A stretch of 13,484 nucleotides of DNA from Candidatus Bathyarchaeum sp. GTDB taxonomy: Archaea > Thermoproteota > Bathyarchaeia > Bathyarchaeales > Bathyarchaeaceae. Shown here piece after piece: positions 421 through 13,484 of the stretch (positions are counted from its first letter, which is position 1; each line of letters starts with the position of its first letter). The position numbers and the translations under genes are program-made. The DNA lies in the NCBI GenBank assembly GCA_026014495.1, contig JAOZIF010000105.1, positions 1-13,484 on the forward strand, written 5' to 3'. Below the pieces are notes generated by a model. It did not search any database and was not told the DNA's origin. It worked only from the letters and a program-made list of their open reading frames with translations.

Positions 421-436
421 CTCAAGACTTATTAAC
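421..436 (+). promoter_or_regulatory. Putative BRE/TATA promoter of the methanopterin biosynthesis operon
   Basis: ctcaagac-TTATTAAC (TATA-like at 429-436) is the best AT-rich TATA-like element upstream of the first operon gene. Confidence 0.5.
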
Positions 437-439
437 TAA

Positions 440-455
440 GTGAAAAAAATTACAC
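440..455. promoter_or_regulatory. Palindromic operator-like site GTGAAA-AAAA-TTACAC (copy 1)
   Basis: One mismatch from the perfect palindrome GTGTAA-N4-TTACAC. Lies 3 nt downstream of the TATA-like element. 15/16 identical to the site at 5302-5317 when both are read in their genes' direction. Confidence 0.65.
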
Positions 456-517
456 TCGGTTGAGATGTGCTGTGGCTGTACAAGAATCTACTCCTTTCAG
501 TTTAGTTTTGAGTTCTG

Positions 518-544
518 ACTTCCAAAGTTATGTTGTTTGGAGGT
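518..544 (+). promoter_or_regulatory. Predicted 5'-UTR hairpin sequestering the Shine-Dalgarno of the first operon gene
   Basis: ACUUCCAAA (518-526) pairs with UUUGGAGGU (536-544): 8 Watson-Crick pairs plus 1 G-U, with a 9-nt loop. The 3' arm contains GGAGGT of the RBS. Pairing done by eye. Confidence 0.35.
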
Positions 545-550
545 GCTCCA

Positions 551-1216
551 ATGACTGATTTATGTGATTTAGGATTTGTTAAAGATGCAATCGGAGAGAC
601 AATTGTTTCTACGTATACTTTGGATATGCAACCGACTGCTGCACCCATGGGTGTTGTGATAAAAAACAATAAGCAACTACTTGTTAGGCCATATGTTTCT
701 TCTTTAACTTACAAGAACCTTCAAGCATCACGATGTGCTGTGGTAAATGTTACATCAGACCCAGAATTGTTTTACCTGACCGCTTTCAAAGAAGCAAATT
801 CTGGCGGCAAACTGCCTTGTGGGTTTTTCGAAAAAGCAGAGAGTGTTGCTGCTCCAAGATTACGGACGGCAAATGCTGTTATTGAGGTGCTTGTTACGAA
901 AGTGGGTTCTTTTAATTCTGAAAGAGCAGAGTTTTTGTGTGATGCCCAGCTTGTTGCAGCATCAAAGGCGTTACCTACTGTGTATTGCAGGGCTCAGTTC
1001 GCGACAATTGAAGCAATAGTTCATGCTACCCGCATCAAGCCCTTTTTGAAAGGCAGTAAAGAAGAGCAAGAACGTGCGCTTAACCTATTAGAGTTGGTTA
1101 ATGTTTGCCAAGATGTTGTTGACCGTACAGCTCCTAATTCGCGTTACTCTGAACTTATGGCTGATTTAAGTCAAAGAATCAATTCATGGAGGAACCAAAG
1201 TGAAAGTTTACGTTAA
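551..1216 (+). CDS. DUF447 family protein (FMN-binding split-barrel-like), associated with methanopterin biosynthesis
   Basis: Motifs ETIVST..PTAAPMGV, TYKNL..AVVNVTSDPELF and RAQFATIEAIVHATR match my recollection of DUF447. Start moved from 530 to the in-frame ATG at 551 because GGAGGTG (539-545) lies 5 nt upstream. Confidence 0.85.
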   Translation: MTDLCDLGFVKDAIGETIVSTYTLDMQPTAAPMGVVIKNNKQLLVRPYVSSLTYKNLQASRCAVVNVTSDPELFYLTAFKEANSGGKLPCGFFEKAESVAAPRLRTANAVIEVLVTKVGSFNSERAEFLCDAQLVAASKALPTVYCRAQFATIEAIVHATRIKPFLKGSKEEQERALNLLELVNVCQDVVDRTAPNSRYSELMADLSQRINSWRNQSESLR

Positions 1217-2165
1217 AACTCCAGCAAGGCTGCATTTTGGTCTAATAGACCTTAATGGAGACATGGGACGATTCTTCGGAGGCTTAGGCGTAGGCATAGA
1301 CCAGCCAAATGTGGTTCTTGTGGCTCAAGTATCCGAAAGTTTTTCTGTTACCGGCAAAAAAACTGACTTAACATCATTGCTTGCTAAACGGTTTCTTGAA
1401 TCTTACAACATAAACGCCAACGTTAGCATCAATGTAAAACAGGTAATTCCTGAACATGCAGGACTAGGCTCTGGAACACAGTTGGCGTTGGCTGTAGCTG
1501 CAGCTCTTGCTAAACTGTTTCAGGTAAACGCTTCAACTCAAGAACTATCCCTTACCATGGGAAGAATGAAACGAACTGGAGTTGGCACCGCAATATTTGA
1601 GCACGGCGGCTTTGTTGTTGATGGCGGAAAAACAATGAAAGACGGAGTTGTGGTTCCCGAAAGTTTGCCTCCCCTGATTTTCCGTTACCCCTTCCCTGAG
1701 GACTGGAAATTTGTTGTTGCAATGCCTGACGTGAAAAAAGGACTAGCCAAAACTGAAGAGAAGACAGCTTTTGCTAGTGTGCCTCAGATGCCTGCTGAAC
1801 TTGTTGGCAGAATCTGCTGGTTGACAATGATGAAGTTGCTGCCTGCGTTAGTGGATTGTGACATCAAAAGTTTTGGTGATGCTTTAACCACAATTCAAGT
1901 AGTTGTTGGGGACTACTTTGCTGGTGTTCAAGGAGGAACCTTTTCCAGTTTGGCAGCTTCAGCAGGGATAGATTTCATGAAAGCATGTGGTGCCTATGGT
2001 GTAGGGCAGAGTTCTTGGGGACCTGCAGTTTATGGGCTAGTTCAAGGTGATACACAAGCAAAAAAACTTCACTCTGAAGTTGAAGCTTTCCTTCAAGACA
2101 ATGGGGGTGGACAAGTTTTTGTTGCCAACCCAAATAACAGTGGAGCCACAATAAAGCAGGTTTAA
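1200..2165 (+). CDS. mptG: Beta-ribofuranosylaminobenzene 5'-phosphate (RFA-P) synthase, GHMP-kinase fold
   Basis: TPARLHFGLIDL..GR.FGGLG, PEHAGLGSGTQLALA, GVG..IFEHGGFVVDGG and GQSSWGPAVY are the family motifs. GTG start with GGAGG at 1188-1192; overlaps the upstream gene by 17 nt. Confidence 0.93.
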   Translation: MKVYVKTPARLHFGLIDLNGDMGRFFGGLGVGIDQPNVVLVAQVSESFSVTGKKTDLTSLLAKRFLESYNINANVSINVKQVIPEHAGLGSGTQLALAVAAALAKLFQVNASTQELSLTMGRMKRTGVGTAIFEHGGFVVDGGKTMKDGVVVPESLPPLIFRYPFPEDWKFVVAMPDVKKGLAKTEEKTAFASVPQMPAELVGRICWLTMMKLLPALVDCDIKSFGDALTTIQVVVGDYFAGVQGGTFSSLAASAGIDFMKACGAYGVGQSSWGPAVYGLVQGDTQAKKLHSEVEAFLQDNGGGQVFVANPNNSGATIKQV

Positions 2166-2196
2166 CGTTAGATTCACTATAGATGGATGGTTGAGT

Positions 2197-2922
2197 ATGG
2201 CTGTGCAAATTGCTTGGGCGATAACTGGAGCTGGTCACTTCTTGGCGGAAACCTTTGAGTTAATGACCAAGTTAGCTAAAAACAACAAGATTACAGTAAC
2301 AACATACCTGTCTTCGGCGGGGGAACAGGTAGTGAAAATGTATGGGTTATGGAACAAATTTGAACAGATATCTTCTGGTGGTTATCTTCAAGAAATTTTT
2401 ACCGAAAACAACCAAGACTTAGGGTTCTCGCATGCAGGGCGATTCATTGTAGAACCGTACGCGTTGCTTGTTGTTTCTCCTGCGAGTGCAAATACAGTTG
2501 CAAAGATTGCATGTGGCATAGCTGATACCCTTGTGACTAACGTTGTTGCTCAGGCACAAAAAGGGGGCGTTCACGTTTATGTTGTGCCAACTGACCAAAA
2601 AGAAGGCTTTGTTGAGACTGTGCTGCCTTGTCGAGTTGACCGCGCAAGTTGTAAACAGTGTAGCCCCTGTTCTATAGTTGATGTTTGCCCAAATTCTGCT
2701 GTGCAACTCTTGGATGGTTTTCCAAAGATTAATTCAGTGTTATGTCAAGGCTGCGGTTTGTGCGTAACCTCTTGCCAGTTTGGAGCGGTCAAATTTGGCG
2801 AAAAAAAGAGAATTTGGATTAGAAGTGTTGACGCCCACAATGTTGATAAGTTGCGGTCTATGGCTAACTTGACTGTTTTGGAGCATCCACAACAAATACA
2901 AACAATAATTGCAAAACTATGA
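2197..2922 (+). CDS. dmrX: Dihydromethanopterin reductase-type iron-sulfur flavoprotein (archaeoflavoprotein AfpA/DmrX family)
   Basis: Flavoprotein motifs IAWAITGAGH and VSPASANTVAKIACGIADTLVTNVVAQAQKG, plus PTD. Inserted 2x[4Fe-4S] domain with CxxCxxCx5CP and CxxCxxCxxxC. Start at ATG 2197 or TTG 2191. Confidence 0.85.
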   Translation: MAVQIAWAITGAGHFLAETFELMTKLAKNNKITVTTYLSSAGEQVVKMYGLWNKFEQISSGGYLQEIFTENNQDLGFSHAGRFIVEPYALLVVSPASANTVAKIACGIADTLVTNVVAQAQKGGVHVYVVPTDQKEGFVETVLPCRVDRASCKQCSPCSIVDVCPNSAVQLLDGFPKINSVLCQGCGLCVTSCQFGAVKFGEKKRIWIRSVDAHNVDKLRSMANLTVLEHPQQIQTIIAKL

Positions 2923-2940
2923 ACAGATTAGGTGTTGCCC

Positions 2941-4503
2941 TTGAAGGTGTTGCTGATAACTGGAGTCCTTGCACAGGACATAGTGAAACGTTATGCCCAA
3001 CAAAGCAGCATAGAAACCAAAGTCCTTGCTTTACCTATTCAAGTTGCTGCGCTACTAAAAATGCCAAACATTGCACAAGAACTAAAAAACAGGAACATAA
3101 ACGGCTTTGACGCCATCTTGGTTCCCGGACTAATCCGTGGCGACACTTCAGTTATTGCAGCTGCTACACAAATTCCAACATTCAAAGGTCCAAGATACGC
3201 CGCTGATTTGCCTACCGTCTTGGATTCCATGGGCAAAGTTGAGCTTTCAACAGTAACACCTGCTTGTGATTTGCTCAGAGAAGAACTTCAACGAAAAGCA
3301 CTACAAGAACTGGAACTTGCAGAGAAAAACTGGAAAACATTACTAAACAACCCCGGAAACATGGCTATCAAAAACTTGGTTTTTGGCAAAGATTTTCCAA
3401 TGCGCGTTATGGCTGAAATCGTTGATGCTCCTTTGATGGAATCTGACGAAATTCAAAGACTTGCTAAACGTTACGTGGAGCATGGCGCAGACATTATCGA
3501 TGTTGGTATGATTGCAGGTGAACCCAGACCAGCAGATGCTAAACGTGCTGTTGAGGCAGTTAAGGCTGTTGTAGATGTGCCTGTCAGCATTGACACACTT
3601 GACCCTGTTGAAGCAAAAGCCGCCGTTTCTGCTGGCGCAGACTTAATCTTGAGTGTAGATGCTGGAAACGTTGAAGAGATTGCAGCTTTTGCTTCTGATG
3701 TGGCTGTGGTTGCTATTCCAACTAATCAGCGTGAAGGATACTTCCCCAAAGAAGTGGCTGAGCGCGTGGCTTTTCTTGAACAGATTATAGCCCGAGCCAG
3801 AGCGCTGGGAATAAAACAGATTTTGGCTGATTTGATTCTTGAGCCGTCAAATGTTTTGCGGTCGTTTATTGCTTTTGGTGAGTATGCAAAAAGAAACCCT
3901 GATGTTCCCCTGTTTATAGGTGCCACCAACTTCACGGAGTTGATAGATGCCGATTCTGTGGGCGTTAACGCGTTGCTTGCTTGTTTGTCGTCTGAGGTTG
4001 GAGTGAGCATATTGTTGGCTACCGAGAAAAGCTCCAAAGCAAAAGGGACAGTCAAAGAACTTGTTACTGCGTCTAAGATGATGTTTTTGGCTAAAAAGCG
4101 GGACTCTGTTCCTAAGAATCTTGGTTTAGACCTTCTTGTGTTAAAAGATAAACGGTTGCGTGCTGAACCTTACGACGCCAATGTTGAGTCAGATGCACAA
4201 CTAGTATATGCAGATGAAAATCTTAAACCCGAAGTTTTAGACGAAAAGGGAATCTTCAAAATCGCAGTGGACCACATTAGCGGAAACATTGTTGCTCTTC
4301 ATCTTGTTGACAACCAACAGGACAAGCCAACTGTTGTGGTTAAAGGCAAAACCGCCGAGAATGTGTATTCCAAAATTGAGGACCTTGGTTTGTTAACGCG
4401 ACTTGACCATGCTGCCTATTTGGGGCGTGAATTGGCAAAGGCTGAGGTTGCCTTGCTGACTGGAAAAGAGTACATCCAAGATAGCCCATTATTCAAGGCT
4501 TGA
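2941..4503 (+). CDS. Dihydropteroate synthase-like protein (MJ0107/TIGR00284-type; pterin-binding TIM barrel plus C-terminal DUF4346-like domain)
   Basis: N-terminal KVLLITG.LA and TFKGPRYAADLP; barrel motifs AEIVDAP, GADIIDVG and PVSIDT; C-terminal DHAAYLGRELAKAEVAL..GKEYIQD. Start probably TTG 2941 (AGGTG at 2930-2934) rather than GTG 2932. Confidence 0.88.
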   Translation: MKVLLITGVLAQDIVKRYAQQSSIETKVLALPIQVAALLKMPNIAQELKNRNINGFDAILVPGLIRGDTSVIAAATQIPTFKGPRYAADLPTVLDSMGKVELSTVTPACDLLREELQRKALQELELAEKNWKTLLNNPGNMAIKNLVFGKDFPMRVMAEIVDAPLMESDEIQRLAKRYVEHGADIIDVGMIAGEPRPADAKRAVEAVKAVVDVPVSIDTLDPVEAKAAVSAGADLILSVDAGNVEEIAAFASDVAVVAIPTNQREGYFPKEVAERVAFLEQIIARARALGIKQILADLILEPSNVLRSFIAFGEYAKRNPDVPLFIGATNFTELIDADSVGVNALLACLSSEVGVSILLATEKSSKAKGTVKELVTASKMMFLAKKRDSVPKNLGLDLLVLKDKRLRAEPYDANVESDAQLVYADENLKPEVLDEKGIFKIAVDHISGNIVALHLVDNQQDKPTVVVKGKTAENVYSKIEDLGLLTRLDHAAYLGRELAKAEVALLTGKEYIQDSPLFKA

Positions 4504-4507
4504 TTTG

Positions 4508-5275
4508 TTATTCTTCTGGAAGTAAGAACGTTTTTTTGAGGACTCTTAGTAGGGGGGTGCCAACTATTGTTGCTAATGCAATTAAGCCCAGCCTTTCTAC
4601 GGGGTATACAAGGAATATGCTTGGCCATATGAACATGTGATATGTTTCAAAAGATATTGAACCTAGGGGTTGAGCCATTATTGTTTCGAACAGCAGATTT
4701 CCCATTAAGTGCTGCATCATGGTTCCGATGAAAACTAGTAGTGCTATTCCTGTTGCGGTTTTTGTTGTGTTGTTTGTGGTTACCCAGTGGGCTGCTTTTC
4801 GTCCCAGTGGCGATATAAGAACTGCCAGTGCTACGATATGTAACCAAGCAAACGGAAGTGCGATTGTTGTCTCCCCTAAGGAGAAGTCTATGAGGACACT
4901 TGTGTTTGGGTGTATGAGAAACACTGCGAGCAAGGTGACATTTATTGCGATTACGTGTACCCATTTCTTTTTTATTAGTAATCCTAGCGATACTGCGCCT
5001 ATTGTGGCGGGTAGAAAGTCGAGGAACATGAATGAGACTGGTTTTCCCATTGCCATTGCTAAGAATGTGCCTATGGTTGTGCTTAAGCCGCCGATGTATG
5101 GTCCTAGTATGATTCCGTAGATGGGGGCGATGACGTCTGATAGTGAGAATGAAGCATTTGAGGCGCCTATCATTGGTACGGTGGGTATTATTCTGAGTAC
5201 GGCGTATAGAGCGGTGAATATTGCGACTAGTGCTATTGTTTTTGTGTTTGTGGCTTGTTTTAGTATGTTGCTCAA
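4508..5275 (-). CDS. ECF-type transporter substrate-binding (S) component-like membrane protein
   Basis: At least 6 hydrophobic segments. N-terminal helix IALVAIFTALYAVL contains AxxxA; then GIILGPYIGG...IG; late HLMGNLLF and ER motifs. TTG start with GAGG upstream. No ECF T or ATPase genes in the window. Confidence 0.72.
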   Translation of the reverse strand: MSNILKQATNTKTIALVAIFTALYAVLRIIPTVPMIGASNASFSLSDVIAPIYGIILGPYIGGLSTTIGTFLAMAMGKPVSFMFLDFLPATIGAVSLGLLIKKKWVHVIAINVTLLAVFLIHPNTSVLIDFSLGETTIALPFAWLHIVALAVLISPLGRKAAHWVTTNNTTKTATGIALLVFIGTMMQHLMGNLLFETIMAQPLGSISFETYHMFIWPSIFLVYPVERLGLIALATIVGTPLLRVLKKTFLLPEE

Positions 5276-5300
5276 TTGGTTTCCCTCATTTGTATGTCGT

Positions 5301-5318
5301 TGTGTAATTTTTTACACA
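5301..5318. promoter_or_regulatory. Perfect palindrome TGTGTAA-TTTT-TTACACA (operator-like, copy 2)
   Basis: 7-bp perfect arms with a 4-nt spacer, read directly. Lies between the TATA box (5333-5340) and the start codon (5275), over the expected transcription start. Confidence 0.7.
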
Positions 5319-5332
5319 GTGTATCTTTTGGT

Positions 5333-5348
5333 ATAATTAAGCTTTTTC
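5333..5348 (-). promoter_or_regulatory. BRE/TATA promoter of the S-component gene
   Basis: Minus strand reads GAAAAAGC-TTAATTAT, a purine-rich BRE followed by a TATA box. Confidence 0.65.
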
Positions 5349-5413: not shown

Positions 5414-5426
5414 CGAAAGTTTTAAG
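5414..5426 (+). promoter_or_regulatory. BRE/TATA promoter of the 82-aa membrane protein gene
   Basis: CGAAAG-TTTTAAG about 43 nt upstream of the TTG at 5469; GAGG RBS at 5455-5458. Confidence 0.55.
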
Positions 5427-5468
5427 TGCAAAGGGAGTTAAGCCTCTTATGTTTGAGGCGAAAAACAG

Positions 5469-5717
5469 TTGAGAAACAGGTCTTTAGGTGCACTGCTCTT
5501 CGCGTTAGCATTACTTGGCATGGTTGGCTATTTTTGGCTGCTCTTCTTGACTCCACAAGATGCAGTTTTCTTGGAAAAAAGCGTAAGCGAATGGGCACTA
5601 ATTATTCCCATTGTAATAATAGTCTATGCGGTTCTTATTGTGGTGGCATGGATTGGCTGGGCTTTGGCTTCCACGGCGCCTCCTCTTCCGGTTACTGTTG
5701 AAGTTTCTGATGAATGA
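5469..5717 (+). CDS. Small two-TM conserved archaeal membrane protein
   Basis: Two hydrophobic helices and a C-terminal AWIGWALASTAPP motif, resembling the WIGYTLATTPPP motif I recall from a TACK-archaeal family. Has its own promoter and RBS. Confidence 0.75.
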   Translation: MRNRSLGALLFALALLGMVGYFWLLFLTPQDAVFLEKSVSEWALIIPIVIIVYAVLIVVAWIGWALASTAPPLPVTVEVSDE

Positions 5718-5739: not shown

Positions 5740-6372
5740 CTATTTTCTTGTTTTAAGTAAGATTGCTAAAACAGCGCCTATTGTTACAGCAAGCAATACA
5801 ATAGGGAAAATTGGGTCTATCCCAAAGGCTTGACTTTGCCAGATGTTTGTGTTTTCTGCTTTTGTAGTGATGGTGAAGTCTGAATATGTTGAGGTTGCTT
5901 CAAGTAGAAAGCCTGTGGCTTGGTCCCAGTAGAACATGTTGTGTGTTGTGGTTGCAGTTACAACTGTCCGTTTTGCGTCTGCGTATGTTCTTTCTTCAAC
6001 TGCGCTGATTGTTATGGTGCCTTCGGTTTGTTCTATGAATGTGTCTGTGTTACTCAGGTTTGCGGGGATGATGAATGAGTCTCCGATTTGTCCTGTTTGA
6101 AGGTTCAGGGTTGTGGTGTCTGTTGTCTGTGTTCCATTAGGGTATGTCGATGTGAGTTTGATGTCAATTTGTGTTCCGTCAACTCCAGTAACTTCAATTT
6201 TTGCACTGTCTACGTTGTGTTCGTCTGGAACGTTTCCCGTGCAGGTTACCTGATACTCTATCACGTCACCTTTTGTTACGCCCACTGAAATCTCAGCTAA
6301 CACGCATGCCGGAAATATCATGCCAAAAAGAACTGCTAAACAAATTATATATGATGCATTTTTTTTCATCAT
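5740..6372 (-). CDS. Secreted, C-terminally membrane-anchored hypothetical surface protein
   Basis: Signal peptide (MKK+hydrophobic+VLA), GV.KGD.IEY start of the mature domain, Thr-rich beta-type body with YWDQATGFLLE, and a C-terminal TM helix plus basic tail. GGAG RBS upstream. Confidence 0.8.
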   Translation of the reverse strand: MMKKNASYIICLAVLFGMIFPACVLAEISVGVTKGDVIEYQVTCTGNVPDEHNVDSAKIEVTGVDGTQIDIKLTSTYPNGTQTTDTTTLNLQTGQIGDSFIIPANLSNTDTFIEQTEGTITISAVEERTYADAKRTVVTATTTHNMFYWDQATGFLLEATSTYSDFTITTKAENTNIWQSQAFGIDPIFPIVLLAVTIGAVLAILLKTRK

Positions 6373-6440: not shown

Positions 6441-8528
6441 TTATTTTTCTACGTAAATTTGGCTTGCTCCCATCTCTTTTTCTACACGTATTACATGCTC
6501 TGCTTTTTCTGCGAAAGCTTCATTGTGCGTTACAGCGATTATTTGCTCGATAGACTTTAAGCGACTCACTGCTTCAGCCAATCGGTCCACGGAGCCGTCT
6601 TCTCTTCCCAGACTTTCTGTTGGTTCATCAAGCAAAAGCATGTAAAGTCCGTGACCTGTTCTGGATTGCATGATTAGTTGTCCTAGTCCTATGCGGTAAG
6701 CAAATGCGAGTAGTGTGCGTTCTCCGCCTGAAAGGTTTGTGACTTCTCGTTCGTAGCCTTCTTCGCTGGATACTGTTGGCGAGTATGTTTCGTCGATTTT
6801 AATGTTTAATGTGGGTCCTGTGTCTCCGACTAGGTTGTCTAGTGTTTGTTGAACTGTGATCTGCAGGTACGTGATGAATTCTTTTCTAAGTTTAGGCTGG
6901 ATGCTCCTGTATGCAACCCGTATGCCATCTATGATTCCAAGAAGCTTGTTTATCTTCTCTTTTCGTTCAATCTTGCTTTGAGCATTATCTAACCTTTCTT
7001 TTAGTTCATCTACACGTAAAGCAAGATCCTTTTTTTGGCGCAATAAATTCTCTAACTCGTGTTTAGCTTCAGAGTGCTTTGTGAAAGCATTGTCACGTAG
7101 TTTTCGTGCGCACTCAAGTTTCGTAACATCAAACTTGGATATTTCGTCCCGAGTTTCGTCAAGCTGCTTTTGGAGCATAGTTTCTTCTTGTTGTGCCTCT
7201 TCAAGTTGCTCAGAAATTTTGGTAGTTAATTCCTGTTTTTCTGTCACCTGCTTTTTGGTGTCTGCTATTCGGGGAATAATCTGCTGGAGATTCGAGACCG
7301 CATCATCGACGATGCTGTGGCGGCTGTTTAGTTTGTCAAAGTCTTTTTGCAGTTCTGTTAGCCTTTTTTTGTTTTCTGCTTGTTCTTTTTGCATGTTTTT
7401 CTTGAGGCTTTCTTTGTAGTCGCCAGTGAGGTCTTGAAGGCATCGGGGACACTTGCTTTCGGTTATTATGCCTGCAATTGTGTTCATGGACGCTTTCATT
7501 TCTCTTTTTATTGCTTCTTGTTCGCCGCCGATAGTTCGGATTTGCTCTTCGAGACCAAAAATGTGGTTCTTTAGTTCTTCAAACGTTTTATCTGAGCCTA
7601 ATCCTGCTTCTTGGAGCGCTTTTTGGTGTGAGCTTTTTTGTTTTTCAAGCTGTTCCAAAAGCTTGTTTGATTCATCAAGGCGCCTCTTGTTTGTTTGTTT
7701 TTGGTCTAAAAGTTCTGTTGTCCTTCTTTTGATGTTGGCGATGTTTGTTTGAATCTGAATCTTTTTTCTTTGTAATGCCTCTGTTGTTTTTCGCAGCTCT
7801 TCGAGGCTTTCAAGAGTGGCAGTTGCCTCTTTGAGAATTGTTTGTGTTTTTGCAACTTTTTTGTTCATAGTTTCAAGTTGACTTGCAACAGCAAGGCTTT
7901 CTTCAGCCGCTTTGTTGTAGTCGCCGTCAAGTTTGTTGATGCGAATCACGTCTGCGTCCCGTTCAAGGACACTTTTTTCGATTTCATATTCTCTTTCAAA
8001 CTGGTGCAAACCGCTCCATGCAACGTTGTAGTCGGAAAGCCCAAACAGCTTATCCAGTTTTGTTTGGCGTTGCCGAGGAGTTATGTCTAAAAGTTCTTTG
8101 AGGTACTCTTGGCGCACCCAAATGACTTCTCGGAAAATGTTTTTGTCCAGTCCAGTTAGCGCTTTTAGTTCCTCGGTAACTGCATCGTTTTTGTTGCCTG
8201 CAACCATTTTGCCGTCTCGATAAAACTTGAGGTGGTCAACATCTTGGCTGATGCCGTTTGCTTTTCTTTGGAGGACACGTTGAATCTTGTATTTTGTGTT
8301 ATTGTGAACAAAAACTGCTGTTACCTTTCCGTTTTCTGCGTCTTCTCTGAGCAGATAATCGTAGCTTCTGCCTAATGGGTCTCCAAAAAGAACAAAATCA
8401 AGAGCATACAAAACAGTTGACTTTCCTTGCCCTACACCCCCAACTAGACAGTTGAAGCCTTCACCAAAAGGCACAACTGTTTTGACGTGCGACCTGATGT
8501 TCTCTAACTGCATGGATTCAAGCTTCAA
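6441..8528 (-). CDS. rad50: Rad50 (SbcC-like) ABC ATPase of the Mre11-Rad50 DNA double-strand-break repair complex
   Basis: Walker A GGVGQGKST, Q-loop VRQE, coiled coils, central zinc hook CPRC (7440-7451), signature LSGGE, Walker B LLLDEPT and H-loop VTH. TTG start overlaps the mre11 stop (TTGA). Confidence 0.92.
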   Translation of the reverse strand: MKLESMQLENIRSHVKTVVPFGEGFNCLVGGVGQGKSTVLYALDFVLFGDPLGRSYDYLLREDAENGKVTAVFVHNNTKYKIQRVLQRKANGISQDVDHLKFYRDGKMVAGNKNDAVTEELKALTGLDKNIFREVIWVRQEYLKELLDITPRQRQTKLDKLFGLSDYNVAWSGLHQFEREYEIEKSVLERDADVIRINKLDGDYNKAAEESLAVASQLETMNKKVAKTQTILKEATATLESLEELRKTTEALQRKKIQIQTNIANIKRRTTELLDQKQTNKRRLDESNKLLEQLEKQKSSHQKALQEAGLGSDKTFEELKNHIFGLEEQIRTIGGEQEAIKREMKASMNTIAGIITESKCPRCLQDLTGDYKESLKKNMQKEQAENKKRLTELQKDFDKLNSRHSIVDDAVSNLQQIIPRIADTKKQVTEKQELTTKISEQLEEAQQEETMLQKQLDETRDEISKFDVTKLECARKLRDNAFTKHSEAKHELENLLRQKKDLALRVDELKERLDNAQSKIERKEKINKLLGIIDGIRVAYRSIQPKLRKEFITYLQITVQQTLDNLVGDTGPTLNIKIDETYSPTVSSEEGYEREVTNLSGGERTLLAFAYRIGLGQLIMQSRTGHGLYMLLLDEPTESLGREDGSVDRLAEAVSRLKSIEQIIAVTHNEAFAEKAEHVIRVEKEMGASQIYVEK

Positions 8529-9724
8529 AGAAACTCCTCCAGCTTCTCTTTCACTTTAATTTCTCGCTTATCCACCAGTGGCGCTATCAAATCAAGTGCT
8601 AGACGGGCGATTTTTTCGCTTTCTTCGCGGTTGTAGTTTTCCTTGAAGATTTCAAAGAAATACTCGAAAGCCTTTGTTTTCAGGTCTTTTATGTCTCCGC
8701 CAAAGATGGAGCGGATTATTTCCTCAGAAATTTCTGTTTCTCTAAGCCGCAGAACAGGATGAACAAGAAGAGCCTTTTTGCTTGCACTTCTTATTTTTGC
8801 AAGGTCAATTTCGCCGCGTCCAGCCTCTGCAGGTAGCACTCCTTTGATGACAGGAACTATAATTGCTTCTGGTTCATCGTTGTCTTTAACCAACTGCACG
8901 GCTGCTTCTGTTATTTTTGAGGGCGTTAAACCAGTGTATGTTTGCTCTAGCACGATGAACCTGCGTGGAGTGTCCAAGTTTATGCGTTCAAGTTTTGGTT
9001 TGCCAGTTTTGCTGACCTGAACGTGGTAAAAGCCTTTCTTGATTTTTGCTTCATCATAGCTTGCGGTTTCTGTGCCGCCGCTATACGACAGAAAGCCGTT
9101 CTTGAACTTTGACTGATACGGCTTGTGAATATGTCCTCCCGCATAATAGTCAAAGCCTTCTGGAAGACTTTCTAGTCCCGCTTCTGCCTCCATTTTTGGG
9201 GGCTTAATTGCAGGAATATCCAAAGCCATGTGAAAAACAAGAACATTAAACAGTGACGGGTCAGGTGCGGGCTTGTTTTTTTTCAGAAACAATGGCAATT
9301 CTTCTTGGGTTTTTCGTGCAGTTCGAAAATTGGGGATGCCATAAACGTAGCAGTTCTCGTTTCTCCAGCATGCACCCTCATGACGAGGCAAATACCAAAT
9401 CAGTCCTGCACTGTCTAGTGGATTAAGAATCGTGCTTGTTATCATGTTAGGTGCAGAATCGTGAGAGCCATCAACAGCAAGAACAGGTATCCCCGCGTCT
9501 TTTAGCCTGCGAAAATTGCTTATCGCAGCTTCCAGAGTGGAGTTTGATGGGCGTGCATGCTCAAAGATGTCTCCTGCAAGTATCATAAAATCTGGCGCTA
9601 ACTCGATTGTTTTGTCCGCCAACTCGCCAAAAACGTTATTGAAGTCTTTGCGTCGCACATCCAAATTGTACTGCGCATACCCCAAATGCAAATCAGCAGC
9701 GTGAACAAAACTAAATGCCTTCAT
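8525..9724 (-). CDS. mre11: Mre11 (SbcD-like) metallophosphoesterase nuclease
   Basis: Phosphoesterase motifs HAADLHLG, LAGDIF, DGSHD, FH and GGHIH, plus YSG..E. Directly upstream of and overlapping rad50. Confidence 0.93.
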   Translation of the reverse strand: MKAFSFVHAADLHLGYAQYNLDVRRKDFNNVFGELADKTIELAPDFMILAGDIFEHARPSNSTLEAAISNFRRLKDAGIPVLAVDGSHDSAPNMITSTILNPLDSAGLIWYLPRHEGACWRNENCYVYGIPNFRTARKTQEELPLFLKKNKPAPDPSLFNVLVFHMALDIPAIKPPKMEAEAGLESLPEGFDYYAGGHIHKPYQSKFKNGFLSYSGGTETASYDEAKIKKGFYHVQVSKTGKPKLERINLDTPRRFIVLEQTYTGLTPSKITEAAVQLVKDNDEPEAIIVPVIKGVLPAEAGRGEIDLAKIRSASKKALLVHPVLRLRETEISEEIIRSIFGGDIKDLKTKAFEYFFEIFKENYNREESEKIARLALDLIAPLVDKREIKVKEKLEEFL

Positions 9725-10035
9725 TGCGCCCTTAGTCCCTCTTCAAACTATTAACTCGTAAACCATTAAGGTGCTTTAGTGACTATTATAAGTAAAGCCC
9801 AAACATGAATAGTTTCCTTCACCAATAAGAAACATCCATGAATCCACATTCATATTGGCACCAAATAGAGAAACATTGTTGAAAACAAGATTTTACTCTG
9901 AAAAACAGAAGTTATTTTTTGCTTCAGAATTCATAATTTTAAACAACTAATTTAGATTAAGTTCGATTTCTTTTATATGTTTGACAAAATCTTTATAGTT
10001 TCTGGAATAAATAACTCACATTAGTGGTATTTTAA

Positions 10036-10324: not shown

Positions 10325-10475
10325 CTCTTAACTGATTCACATTTCTGTGCGACATATTAGTCTGCTAATAGAGGTACATTGTTGAAAACTAACTTTTTTT
10401 CTGAAAAATTTTGCACAGCACACATTTGCTAAAAAAGTTCACACAAGCATTAGTACACCAAAAAAACAGCTTTTT

Positions 10476-11024
10476 TTACAATTGTGCCTCGGCGAGGTCG
10501 CTGTATGAGAGTGTTTCAAGATTGTTTGCAGATATTTCCAGTGTTTTTCTTAGTTCTTCTAGAACCTGCTGGTCTCGTTTAACCATGCTTGGTTTGTCAC
10601 CTGTTTGTCTTTCAAATTCAACAAATTTGCCAAGCGACTTGACCGTGTCCAAATGAATCTGGGTTCCTTTAAGCTGATAAATCTCTCTAACCTTGTTTAT
10701 GACAATAAGCGGCTTTAGTATCTTCTTAAGAACATCCTTCAGCTCTTGTGCTTCTTGAATCCTAAGCAAAAAAGCATCATCCTGCTTTGGTCCAGCAATG
10801 TTTTCCCGCTCATAATAAATCAACTCTGCAGCACTTTGACCTTCTACTTCTCTTAGCTTTAATCTTCCTTCGGGAACCACAAAATACAAGTCAGTTTGCT
10901 GAAAAATTCCAGTATATTGCGCTCCTAATTCAGTCAACTTTTTTTTCAAAAAATCGTGGTCGTCAACTCTTGCCTTTAATTCAACCATTTTATGCTTGAA
11001 ACTGCTCTGTGTTTCGATGTTCAC
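10476..11024 (-). CDS. cyaB: CYTH-domain protein (class IV adenylate cyclase / triphosphate tunnel metalloenzyme family)
   Basis: MVELKAR (ExExK-like), Q.DLYF..PEGRLKLRE, VINKVREIY, IHLDTVK.LGKFVEFE and C-terminal SYSDL. Start at GTG 11024 or ATG 10988. The actual substrate cannot be told from sequence. Confidence 0.87.
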   Translation of the reverse strand: MNIETQSSFKHKMVELKARVDDHDFLKKKLTELGAQYTGIFQQTDLYFVVPEGRLKLREVEGQSAAELIYYERENIAGPKQDDAFLLRIQEAQELKDVLKKILKPLIVINKVREIYQLKGTQIHLDTVKSLGKFVEFERQTGDKPSMVKRDQQVLEELRKTLEISANNLETLSYSDLAEAQL

Positions 11025-11464: not shown

Positions 11465-11694
11465 ATCAACTGAAAAGTTTGTTTGAAAATAAACCCTTTA
11501 TGAATTCTAACTAAATACCTCACATAAGTATGTCTACACAGATTTTTTGGAGCACAAACACATTTTCATGACTTTGCTAAAAACCCGATTTCTAAGAATG
11601 CAACAAAAACACAATAGGACAAAATTTGAGTAAGGTTAATAGGTTAGCTTTTAATCTAGCATGCTATCCATTAACAATCAGGAGAATATATAAG

Positions 11695-13484
11695 GTGCCC
11701 AAATTTAGGCAGACGAGCGATCTTGTAAAGCTCATGAATAAAAAAGAAGACATCAGGGATATAGGCATAATTGCCCACATCGACCATGGTAAAACAACCA
11801 TGTCTGACTCGCTGCTTGCTGAAGCAGGACTTTTGTCCCCTAAAATCGCAGGAGCAGCAAGAGCCCTTGACTATCTTGAAGAAGAACAAAAACGTGGAAT
11901 CACAATTAAAACAGCAAACATTTCCCTCCTACACGAGGTCGACGGCACATCACACGTCGTCAACCTAATCGACACGCCTGGACACGTAGACTTCACAGGA
12001 AAAGTAACACGTGCCCTAAGAGCAATCGACGGAGCAGTCGTAGTAGTAGACGCCGTCGAAGAAGTAATGGTTCAAACAGAAACAGTTACCCGACAAGCTC
12101 TTAACGAGCGAGTGAAACCCGTTCTATTCATCAACAAAGTTGACCGCTTGATTAAAGAACTTAAACTAAACGCAGACCAGATGCAAACAAAACTTCTGCG
12201 AATAATCAGGGACTTCAACAACCTGATTTCAATATATGGAGAAAAAGAAGTTAAAAATGAATGGAAAGTTGACCCCACTCAAGGAACAGTAGCCTTTGGC
12301 TCTGCGCTGCACAAATGGGGCTTCACGCTTGAGATGGCCCAGAAGGCTGGAATAAAATTCAGCGACGTTGTGGATGCATACCAGAATGGAACTGAAGAAA
12401 AACTTGCAGAAATAGTTCCTTTGCACACTGCAATACTGGACATGGCTGTCAAGAATCTTCCAAATCCGATAGTTGCCCAGAAGTATCGTGTTCCAAAAGT
12501 CTGGAAGGGCGAAGCAGATTCTGAGATTGGAAAAGCCATGATTAACTGTGACGAGAATGGACCCACTGTAATGTGTTTAACCTCAGCAATGATGGACCCA
12601 CATGCGGGCCTAGTTGCTACTGGCCGCATCTTTTCAGGTTGCGTTAACGAGGGTGACCGAGTTTTTCTGGTTGGCGCAAAGAAGGATTACCGTGTTCAAC
12701 AGGTCTCCATGTATATGGGTGCCTTCCGAGAAGTTGTTGGCAAAATAGGCGCTGGAAACATAGCTGCAGTGTTGGGAATGGACCTTGCACGAGCAGGAGA
12801 AACTCTCATTAGTGTTGAACAAAAAGATGGGATGGTTCCATTCGAGAACATACAATATGTTTCTGAGCCAGTCATCACAATCGCTATTGAACCCAAATAT
12901 CCACGTGACTTGCCGCGCCTAATCGAGTTAATGGACCGATTAGCAATTGATGACCCAAACCTTGTAACAAAGATTAACAAAGAAACTGGCGAATATCTGC
13001 TCAGCGGAATGGGTGAACTTCACCTTGAAATAGCCGTCAAGTTCCTCAAACAAACTGGTGGAGGATTAGAAATTCTAACGTCTCAGCCACTTGTTGTCTA
13101 CAGGGAAACAGCAGCTACCGAAGGTGTGGTTGCAATGGCAAAGAGTCCCAACAAGCACAGCAGATTCTGGCTACAAGTGGAGCCTCTTGATCAAACTGTT
13201 GTTGATTTGATGGAGAAGGGTGCACTGTTTGAAGCAATGGGAAACAAACGAATCGGTGAGACCCTGCGAGCGGAAGCAGCTTGGTCTGCTCAAGAAGCAA
13301 AGAACGTTTGGGCTTTAGAAGAGCACAGAAACATTCTGGTAGACTTAACTAAAGGTGTTCAATATCTTCGAGAAGTAAAAGAAACCGTTAACTCAGGTTT
13401 CAGATGGGCAGCCAAAAACGGTCCCCTTTCTGATGAGCCAATACGAGGAGTCAAAGTAAAATTGTTGGACGCAAAACTGCACGA
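11695..13484 (+). CDS. fusA: Translation elongation factor 2 (archaeal EF-2), 3'-truncated by the window edge
   Basis: Own translation from GTG 11695 (GGAG at 11681-11684): MPKFRQTSDLVKLMNKKEDIRDIGIIAHIDHGKTT, EEEQKRGITIK, DTPGHVDF, FINKVDR, FGSALHKWGF, SGMGELHLE, KSPNKH, GVKVKLLDAKLH. About 596 codons open to the window end; missing from the ORF track because it has no stop. Confidence 0.96.
   Translation, partial: MPKFRQTSDLVKLMNKKEDIRDIGIIAHIDHGKTTMSDSLLAEAGLLSPKIAGAARALDYLEEEQKRGITIKTANISLLHEVDGTSHVVNLIDTPGHVDFTGKVTRALRAIDGAVVVVDAVEEVMVQTETVTRQALNERVKPVLFINKVDRLIKELKLNADQMQTKLLRIIRDFNNLISIYGEKEVKNEWKVDPTQGTVAFGSALHKWGFTLEMAQKAGIKFSDVVDAYQNGTEEKLAEIVPLHTAILDMAVKNLPNPIVAQKYRVPKVWKGEADSEIGKAMINCDENGPTVMCLTSAMMDPHAGLVATGRIFSGCVNEGDRVFLVGAKKDYRVQQVSMYMGAFREVVGKIGAGNIAAVLGMDLARAGETLISVEQKDGMVPFENIQYVSEPVITIAIEPKYPRDLPRLIELMDRLAIDDPNLVTKINKETGEYLLSGMGELHLEIAVKFLKQTGGGLEILTSQPLVVYRETAATEGVVAMAKSPNKHSRFWLQVEPLDQTVVDLMEKGALFEAMGNKRIGETLRAEAAWSAQEAKNVWALEEHRNILVDLTKGVQYLREVKETVNSGFRWAAKNGPLSDEPIRGVKVKLLDAKLH

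Follow-up and report, generated by a model that had tools for sequence, protein, structure and literature searches.

What, if anything, does an orphan transporter-like protein carry when its gene lies next to a methanopterin operon? The question is raised by a 13,484-nt stretch of DNA (here called the window), which is contig C142 of a 2.19-Mb Bathyarchaeia metagenome-assembled genome that is 93% complete. Beside an operon for methanopterin biosynthesis, it encodes a 255-aa membrane protein that we refer to by the working name S1. A first-pass annotation, made from the sequence alone, had taken S1 for an orphan S-component of an energy-coupling factor (ECF) transporter whose substrate would be a methanopterin- or folate-type cofactor or a precursor. 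By its predicted fold and its context S1 is a group-II ECF S-component, and we infer, with a probability of about 0.55, that it salvages a precursor of methanopterin, most likely the pterin moiety.

The S1 open reading frame (ORF) begins with TTG, and S1 homologues begin at the same aligned position. A search of a large protein collection returned 612 homologues at E ≤ 1e-3, with identities of up to 81%; those listed were about 217-294 aa long, mostly about 250-260 aa, and nearly all are thus similar in length to S1 and come from Bathyarchaeota. The ORF is a real gene. Where the source name of a homologue gave a taxon, it was always Bathyarchaeota or Bathyarchaeum, and the few named homologues were called 'hypothetical protein', 'uncharacterized membrane protein' or, occasionally, 'ECF transporter S component'. 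Only 245 cluster representatives were obtained in an exhaustive profile-free search, indicating that the family is compact and lineage-restricted. Both motifs pointed out in the first-pass annotation are conserved among 26 aligned homologues. The first-helix motif A18-x-x-x-A22 has A or S at position 18 in 26 of 26, and its A22 shows at least 90% conservation; G58-P59-x-x-G62-G63 has three invariant glycines and a proline conserved to at least 90%.

At the level of sequence profiles, the riboflavin S-component family PF07155 gave the only Pfam match above the cut-off (32.3 bits, cut-off 26.7), covering just residues 10-104 of S1 and profile positions 3-97 of 172. PF12822, the family of S-components in general, fell just short of its threshold (28.9 bits, cut-off 30.7), and no match was found in an NCBIfam scan of S1. 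When the predicted S1 model was searched with Foldseek, the best E-value was 0.0096, yet all top matches were S-components. In a comparison with solved structures, the 19 best matches were without exception ECF S-components, of 155-214 aa, aligned end to end with S1, and the predicted fold has the six membrane helices of such proteins. The expectation of an S-component fold was therefore borne out, as was the remark that S1 is longer than typical members. Some 70-100 S1 residues lie outside these alignments, where the model places two beta-hairpins (residues 31-44 and 128-141) and a long last helix.

The first-pass annotation had noted no T-component or ATPase gene next to S1 and had advised looking for them elsewhere. 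None is present in the window, and a module of two ATP-binding cassette ATPases and a CbiQ-family T component (EcfA, EcfA' and EcfT) was found at C194:26400-28880 with no S gene adjoining. The genome also encodes a separate, canonical 166-aa RibU-like S-component (C194:48711-49211), which matches PF07155 over its full length at 1.3e-30. Since the EcfA-EcfA'-EcfT genes sit apart from any S gene and this further S-component exists, the layout is that of a group-II system. Structure prediction of a complex of S1 with this genome's EcfT gave a score of 0.58 compared with 0.00 for the best control, a level at which such predictions are unreliable and lend weak support. Of 80 solved complexes 58 attained the mark used, as did 2 of 110 mismatched pairs; at scores of 0.60 or below it was attained by only 7 of the 80 and by both of the mismatches. 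Most passes in this range are false, except where the two partners were likely to pair in the first place. Across the prediction runs contact agreement was at least 72% and the partner pLDDT (predicted local distance difference test) at least 72, but solved ECF complexes exist, so a pass may simply mirror their likeness.

Might S1 not act in ECF transport at all, serving instead as a membrane scaffold or an enzyme of methanopterin biosynthesis, or as a solitary carrier without an ECF module? S1 exceeds classical S-components by approximately 70 aa and has the two extra beta-hairpins, and to our knowledge several steps of methanopterin synthesis are still without enzymes. Moreover, EcfT is encoded in 117 of 121 genomes of the class, so that its presence says little and has no discriminating value. 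We nonetheless consider this idea very improbable: no catalytic family or fold was detected for S1, its whole fold aligns with S-components from end to end, and the small-residue motif of the first helix, which S-components use for docking onto EcfT, is conserved.

The context of S1 bears on what it might carry. S1 and the MptH-like gene of the operon are convergent, with stop codons 4 nt apart; S1 therefore does adjoin the pterin operon, as had been claimed, but is not a member of it in this genome. In a locus scan that took one genome per species, we recovered 74 loci with S1 relatives of 38-77% identity, and in 66 of these S1 directly adjoins the MptH-like gene. Among these 66, the gene for beta-ribofuranosylaminobenzene 5'-phosphate (RFAP) synthase is also present in 62 and the DUF447 gene in 57, the lower counts being due mostly to contig ends. 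The far flank of S1, here Rad50/Mre11, is common to the closest relatives only. The eight exceptional loci carry the labels Nitrososphaer*, Thaumarchaeota, Bathyarchaeota or Bathycorpusculum; in those whose surroundings were inspected, the genes next to S1 are unrelated. A second, separate sample comprised the 121 class genomes. There, S1 and MptH converge in families f1 and f2, and S1 is co-directional immediately downstream of MptH in f8, f20, f21 and f26, indicating that the adjacency outlived an inversion of S1.

More divergent members of the S1 family (~30-37% identity) were found directly downstream of a LarC-type nickel-insertion gene, between QueT and CofE (F420 glutamyl ligase), and beside the branched-polyamine synthase gene BpsA; their loci are L089-L091 in family f28, L093 and L095 in a second genus of f1, and L092 in f17. 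Given these other contexts, the family as a whole is diversified, with the methanopterin link belonging to the orthologous subgroup, and it may serve several cofactors. The suspected tie between S1 homologues and pterin genes thus held, strongly and with conservation, in 66 of the 74 loci, and more distant members lie elsewhere.

The S1 gene and the operon also share a candidate operator. The S1 promoter carries a perfect palindrome, which overlaps the expected transcription start, and a second copy lies at the operon promoter; this arrangement of TATA box and operator is kept in related loci. Judged from the window by itself, the second copy lacks significance (3 matches, 1.13 expected). Across genomes, a 14-mer, TGTAAAAAATTACA, was found with at most two mismatches in 63 of the 63 testable S1 promoters from the 66 operon-adjacent loci, 36 of them exact, compared with ~1% of shuffled upstream sequences, and in 45 of 55 operon promoters, compared with 0.8% of shuffles. 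All eight S1 homologues away from the operon have three or more mismatches to the 14-mer. The shared palindrome proposed in the first-pass annotation is therefore strongly conserved, despite its insignificance in one window.

The operator is also specific. With a position weight matrix (PWM) built from the conserved sites, the two window sites took first and second place in the 2.19-Mb genome, and the fourth hit lies 29 nt upstream of the gene for a distant S1 paralogue, which we call S2 (C45:8891-9661). In two further genomes, G032 and G105, exact copies of the pattern occur only at the promoters of S1, the operon and a second S-like gene, all in one locus. The operator was searched for and not found in loci of families f20, f18 and f11 or beside the divergent homologues. 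A number of other hits were set aside as probable chance matches: one at C122:14335, which is not upstream of any ORF of at least 80 aa in a coarse ORF list; lower-scoring PWM or pattern hits at C69:1852, C52:19922 and C48:3307; and extra exact sites at 1155648 and 2084714 of genome G081, which were not upstream of a gene or fell inside an ORF. Essentially, the operator occurs only at the operon, S1, the S-like paralogue and a nucleotidyltransferase-like (NTase-like) gene described below. Read most simply, the sites point to a small dedicated regulon governed by one putative DNA-binding repressor and, as the same palindrome lies between the TATA box and the expected start at both promoters, that one protein would switch uptake and assembly together. 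Regulation by a riboswitch was considered and rejected; no Rfam family at gathering thresholds and no ARAGORN tRNA gene were found in the window, so no described riboswitch family explains the regulation.

These data also bear on the possibility that what S1 transports has nothing to do with pterins and is, for instance, a flavin for the operon's flavoproteins (DmrX and the DUF447 protein), the linkage of S1 to the operon reflecting inherited gene order and a broader regulator. The only Pfam match above the cut-off is, after all, to the riboflavin S-component family, two operon products are of the flavoprotein type, other family members lie in unrelated contexts, and the synteny is not independent, as all compared genomes belong to one class. 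A canonical RibU-like S-component is already encoded in the genome, however, the adjacency of S1 outlived both an inversion and the loss of the other flank, and the operator is confined essentially to the genes named above. An unrelated substrate is thus unlikely in our estimation.

The pterin-branch genes MptA (PF02649), FolE (PF01227), MptD (PF04038), MptE (PF01973) and HPPK (PF01288), which stand for the known enzymes on the way from GTP to hydroxymethyl-dihydropterin diphosphate, were searched for in this 93% complete genome and not found, nor were they found in a single-contig congener and three further S1 carriers, making assembly gaps an unlikely cause. Methenyl-tetrahydromethanopterin cyclohydrolase (Mch) and MptH are present in the genome and also in the single-contig congener, whose genome is closed, and a cultivated congener has the archaeal Wood-Ljungdahl pathway with tetrahydromethanopterin (PMC10477458). 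Because these genomes use tetrahydromethanopterin and have kept the enzymes that join a pterin to the aryl-ribosyl moiety, and the known enzymes from GTP to the pterin were not found, a pterin precursor is the most likely substrate. The genome encodes a QueT salvage S-component (C69:17925-18368, plus strand); QueD was not found in it and QueC gave marginal matches only. This combination suggests that 7-deazaguanine precursors are salvaged and agrees with GTP cyclohydrolase I being truly absent.

The distribution of S1 in the class follows the same lines. MptA and MptE occur together in 22-24 of the 121 class genomes, usually right beside MptH. Taking an E-value below about 1e-35 as the mark of an S1 orthologue, we tallied the 65 MptH-positive genomes: S1 is present in 21 of the 42 that lack MptA/MptE and in 3 of the 23 that have them. 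In family f11, MptH was found in 11/11 genomes, MptA in 10/11, MptE in 11/11 and S1 in 0/11. Given that the genomes are related, these counts are descriptive and do not amount to a statistical test. In the lineages with MptA/MptE, those genes adjoin the MptH-like gene, in the place that S1 occupies elsewhere (L084, L085; for example G029:C7, G011:C4, G052:C1).

This pattern also helps to weigh whether S1 instead imports the aryl precursor, p-aminobenzoate or 4-hydroxybenzoate, which is the substrate of RFAP synthase, with the pterin entering via S2 or elsewhere. RFAP synthase lies in the co-regulated operon, two distinct S-like proteins in one regulon would fit two precursors, and we know of no genes that define the archaeal route to p-aminobenzoate, such that an auxotrophy is conceivable. 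Yet the phyletic pattern of S1 follows MptA and MptE of the pterin branch and no marker of the aryl branch, and it is MptA and MptE that fill the place beside MptH in the MptA-positive lineages. Furthermore, p-aminobenzoate crosses membranes fairly readily. We regard an aryl substrate as improbable.

Group-II S-components are usually co-regulated with the biosynthesis of their own vitamin, and by that precedent S1 might import the intact or nearly complete cofactor (methanopterin, sarcinapterin or folate), as FolT, RibU and ThiT do for theirs. S1-family members in 16 genomes without an MptH match would suit such a role, as would the cultivated congener, which has multiple cofactor deficiencies and probably depends on a methanogenic partner, apparently for growth factors (PMC10477458). 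RFAP synthase and MptH would be dispensable under such import, however, and operator-bearing S1 orthologues are nearly always kept together with both. The family members in MptH-negative genomes are, in addition, more divergent and lie in other contexts. Import of the whole cofactor therefore seems to us doubtful, to about the same degree as import of the aryl precursor.

Several observations weigh against the import of a pterin precursor by S1. The matches to S-components are weak at the sequence level, with PF07155 covering only the N-terminal 95 residues, NCBIfam giving none and Foldseek giving 0.0096 at best. The S1-family matches in the 16 genomes without an MptH match are at E 1e-36 to 1e-82, and the divergent members lie in other contexts; S1 and MptA/MptE co-occur in three genomes; and the compared genomes are related, so that the counts overstate the independent support. 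Family f18 has a DUF447-RFAP synthase-MptH operon in 17/23 genomes, with S1 orthologues, MptA, MptE and FolE in 0/23, implying that another pterin route or importer must exist in Bathyarchaeia, which could also serve the genome studied here. Finally, no known pyrophosphokinase that could activate an imported hydroxymethylpterin was found in the genome. The f18 operon (for example at L080-L083) itself carries CitG-like, NTase-like and flavin-reductase-like genes, and 5 of the 23 f18 genomes have S-family matches of the weaker kind only (E 1e-22 to 1e-11).

The NTase-like gene that shares the operator encodes a 338-aa protein of the NTP_transf_2 type with no characterised relative (C45:7849-8865, minus strand) and follows S2 in this genus. 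It has a TATA box and an operator of its own in G032 and G105, which belong to another genus (L120:1188, L121:1192), and the methanopterin operon of f18 starts with the gene for a 33%-identical homologue (L081:3196-4224). The idea that the NTase-like family is complementary to MptE was rejected, since the family is present in 96 of the 121 genomes with several paralogues in each. The protein is a candidate for a missing enzyme of methanopterin synthesis or pterin salvage; a role as pyrophosphokinase is only a guess.

For import of a pterin precursor, the following scheme can be proposed. S1, alone in the membrane, would bind the precursor outside the cell; this could be of the 6-hydroxymethylpterin or dihydropterin type, or a breakdown product of methanopterin, and might come from neighbours such as methanogens. 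S1 would then use the small-residue [A/S]xxxA motif of its first helix to attach to the EcfT-EcfA-EcfA' module encoded on contig C194 and, once docked, topple to release the substrate inside. There the precursor would be activated, the MptH-like enzyme would couple it to the product of RFAP synthase, and DmrX would reduce the result. With plenty of the end product or of an intermediate at hand, the putative repressor would sit on the palindrome and shut down the operon, S1, S2 and, via the S2 promoter, the NTase-like gene. In a broader and more tentative version, many Bathyarchaeia would make neither the pterin ring nor 7-deazaguanine and would rebuild tetrahydromethanopterin from scavenged pterin. 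Their regulon, with one operator and one repressor, would consist of the two long ECF S-components S1 and S2, the RFAP-synthase/MptH operon and the 338-aa NTase, the last perhaps replacing a pterin pyrophosphokinase.

The features of the operon, of S1 and of their promoters are compiled in Table 1.

Table 1. Genes and promoter elements of the methanopterin operon and S1, by position in the window
Feature	Position	Strand	Basis or remark
TATA-like box of the operon promoter, 3 nt 5' of the second operator copy	428-435		ahead of the operon
Second candidate operator copy, AGTGAAAAAAATTACACT, operon promoter	439..456	.	second-best PWM hit in genome
DUF447 protein, first operon gene; likely true start ATG 551 behind GGAGG	530..1216	+	Pfam DUF447_N 1.2e-17
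RFAP synthase	1200..2165	+	TIGR00144 202.6 bits (cut-off 113.5); NF040726 2.2e-70
Dihydromethanopterin reductase, DmrX-type flavoprotein, 4Fe-4S domains	2191..2922	+	TIGR02700 275 bits (cut-off 251)
Dihydropteroate-synthase-like, MptH-like; DUF6513 + Pterin_bind + PterinBD-DUF4346	2932..4503	+	TIGR00284 385 bits (cut-off 257)
S1 ORF, ECF S-component-like membrane protein	4508..5275	-	255 aa, TTG start
Shine-Dalgarno-like GAGGG, 8 nt 5' of the S1 TTG start	5283..5287	-	direct sequence reading
Perfect palindrome TGTGTAA-N4-TTACACA, candidate operator of the S1 promoter	5301..5318	.	top PWM hit in 2.19-Mb genome
TATA-box-like TTAATTATA, preceded by an A-rich stretch resembling a TFB recognition element (BRE); candidate operator begins 13 nt downstream	5332..5340	-	direct sequence reading

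The remainder of the window holds genes of other kinds. Between S1 and Rad50 lie two ORFs that are kept in the closest relatives only, one for a hydrophobic protein of 91 aa (5426-5701, plus strand) and one for a protein of 210 aa (5740-6372, minus strand); neither had a family match in Pfam or NCBIfam, and no candidate regulator emerged from them. They are followed by an Mre11-Rad50 pair (6441-9724, minus strand), in which Rad50 is short at 695 aa compared with model lengths of ~880, by a CYTH or class IV adenylate-cyclase-like gene (10476-11024, minus strand), and by the 5' part of an EF-G/EF-2-type elongation factor gene with GTP_EFTU and EFG domains, which runs off the window (11626-13482, plus strand). 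The AT-rich stretch (34% GC) between Mre11 and the CYTH gene contains two copies of a 42-nt direct repeat (9864-9905 and 10367-10408), which are 83% identical, lie 503 nt apart and have no Rfam match.

Few archaea are as abundant in anoxic sediments as Bathyarchaeia, and no member of the class has been brought into pure culture. Should S1 import a pterin, the head group of their central one-carbon carrier would have to come from other organisms, and simple pterins or methanopterin would be a concrete supplement to try for axenic growth. Such a role would give the dependence of Bathyarchaeia on partners a cause that can be tested, and a pterin regulon with two S-components, if real, would explain part of why these abundant archaea resist pure culture. 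The compact archaeal regulon, with its clear candidate operator, also provides a handle for finding the regulator and points to candidates for missing steps of methanopterin assembly or salvage. A literature search combining ECF, pterin, methanopterin and Bathyarchaeia found no description of such a transporter or regulon; as far as these searches show, pterin for methanopterin is an undescribed substrate class for an ECF transporter, and with S1 an ECF S-component would for the first time be placed in methanopterin metabolism.

Among known systems, S1 is not an orthologue of FolT, RibU, BioY, ThiT or PanT, with identities of 10-19% in structural alignments and no full-length match to a hidden Markov model (HMM). 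FolT (PDB 5d0y, 4z7f) shows 14-18% structure-aligned identity to S1, with 12-18% as the wider range of such alignments; S1 is ~90 aa longer, archaeal, linked to methanopterin rather than folate genes, and has no FolT-type match in Pfam or NCBIfam, ruling out a FolT orthologue. A true RibU (PF07155; PDB 5kbw, 3p5n) is ruled out by the partial PF07155 match, and the genome has its separate, full-length RibU-like gene. BioY (PDB 4dve) is 17% identical to S1, which has no BioY HMM match and no biotin genes nearby. Closer in logic are HmpT/ThiW of the thiamine regulon and QueT for queuosine precursors, which reportedly, in work by Rodionov and colleagues from 2009, are precursor-salvage S-components co-regulated with biosynthesis. 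As in those cases, an orphan S gene shares a regulatory element with the biosynthesis of a cofactor for which, in the proposal for S1, it would supply a precursor; whereas the bacterial systems use riboswitches, S1 has a DNA palindrome beside an archaeal TATA box.
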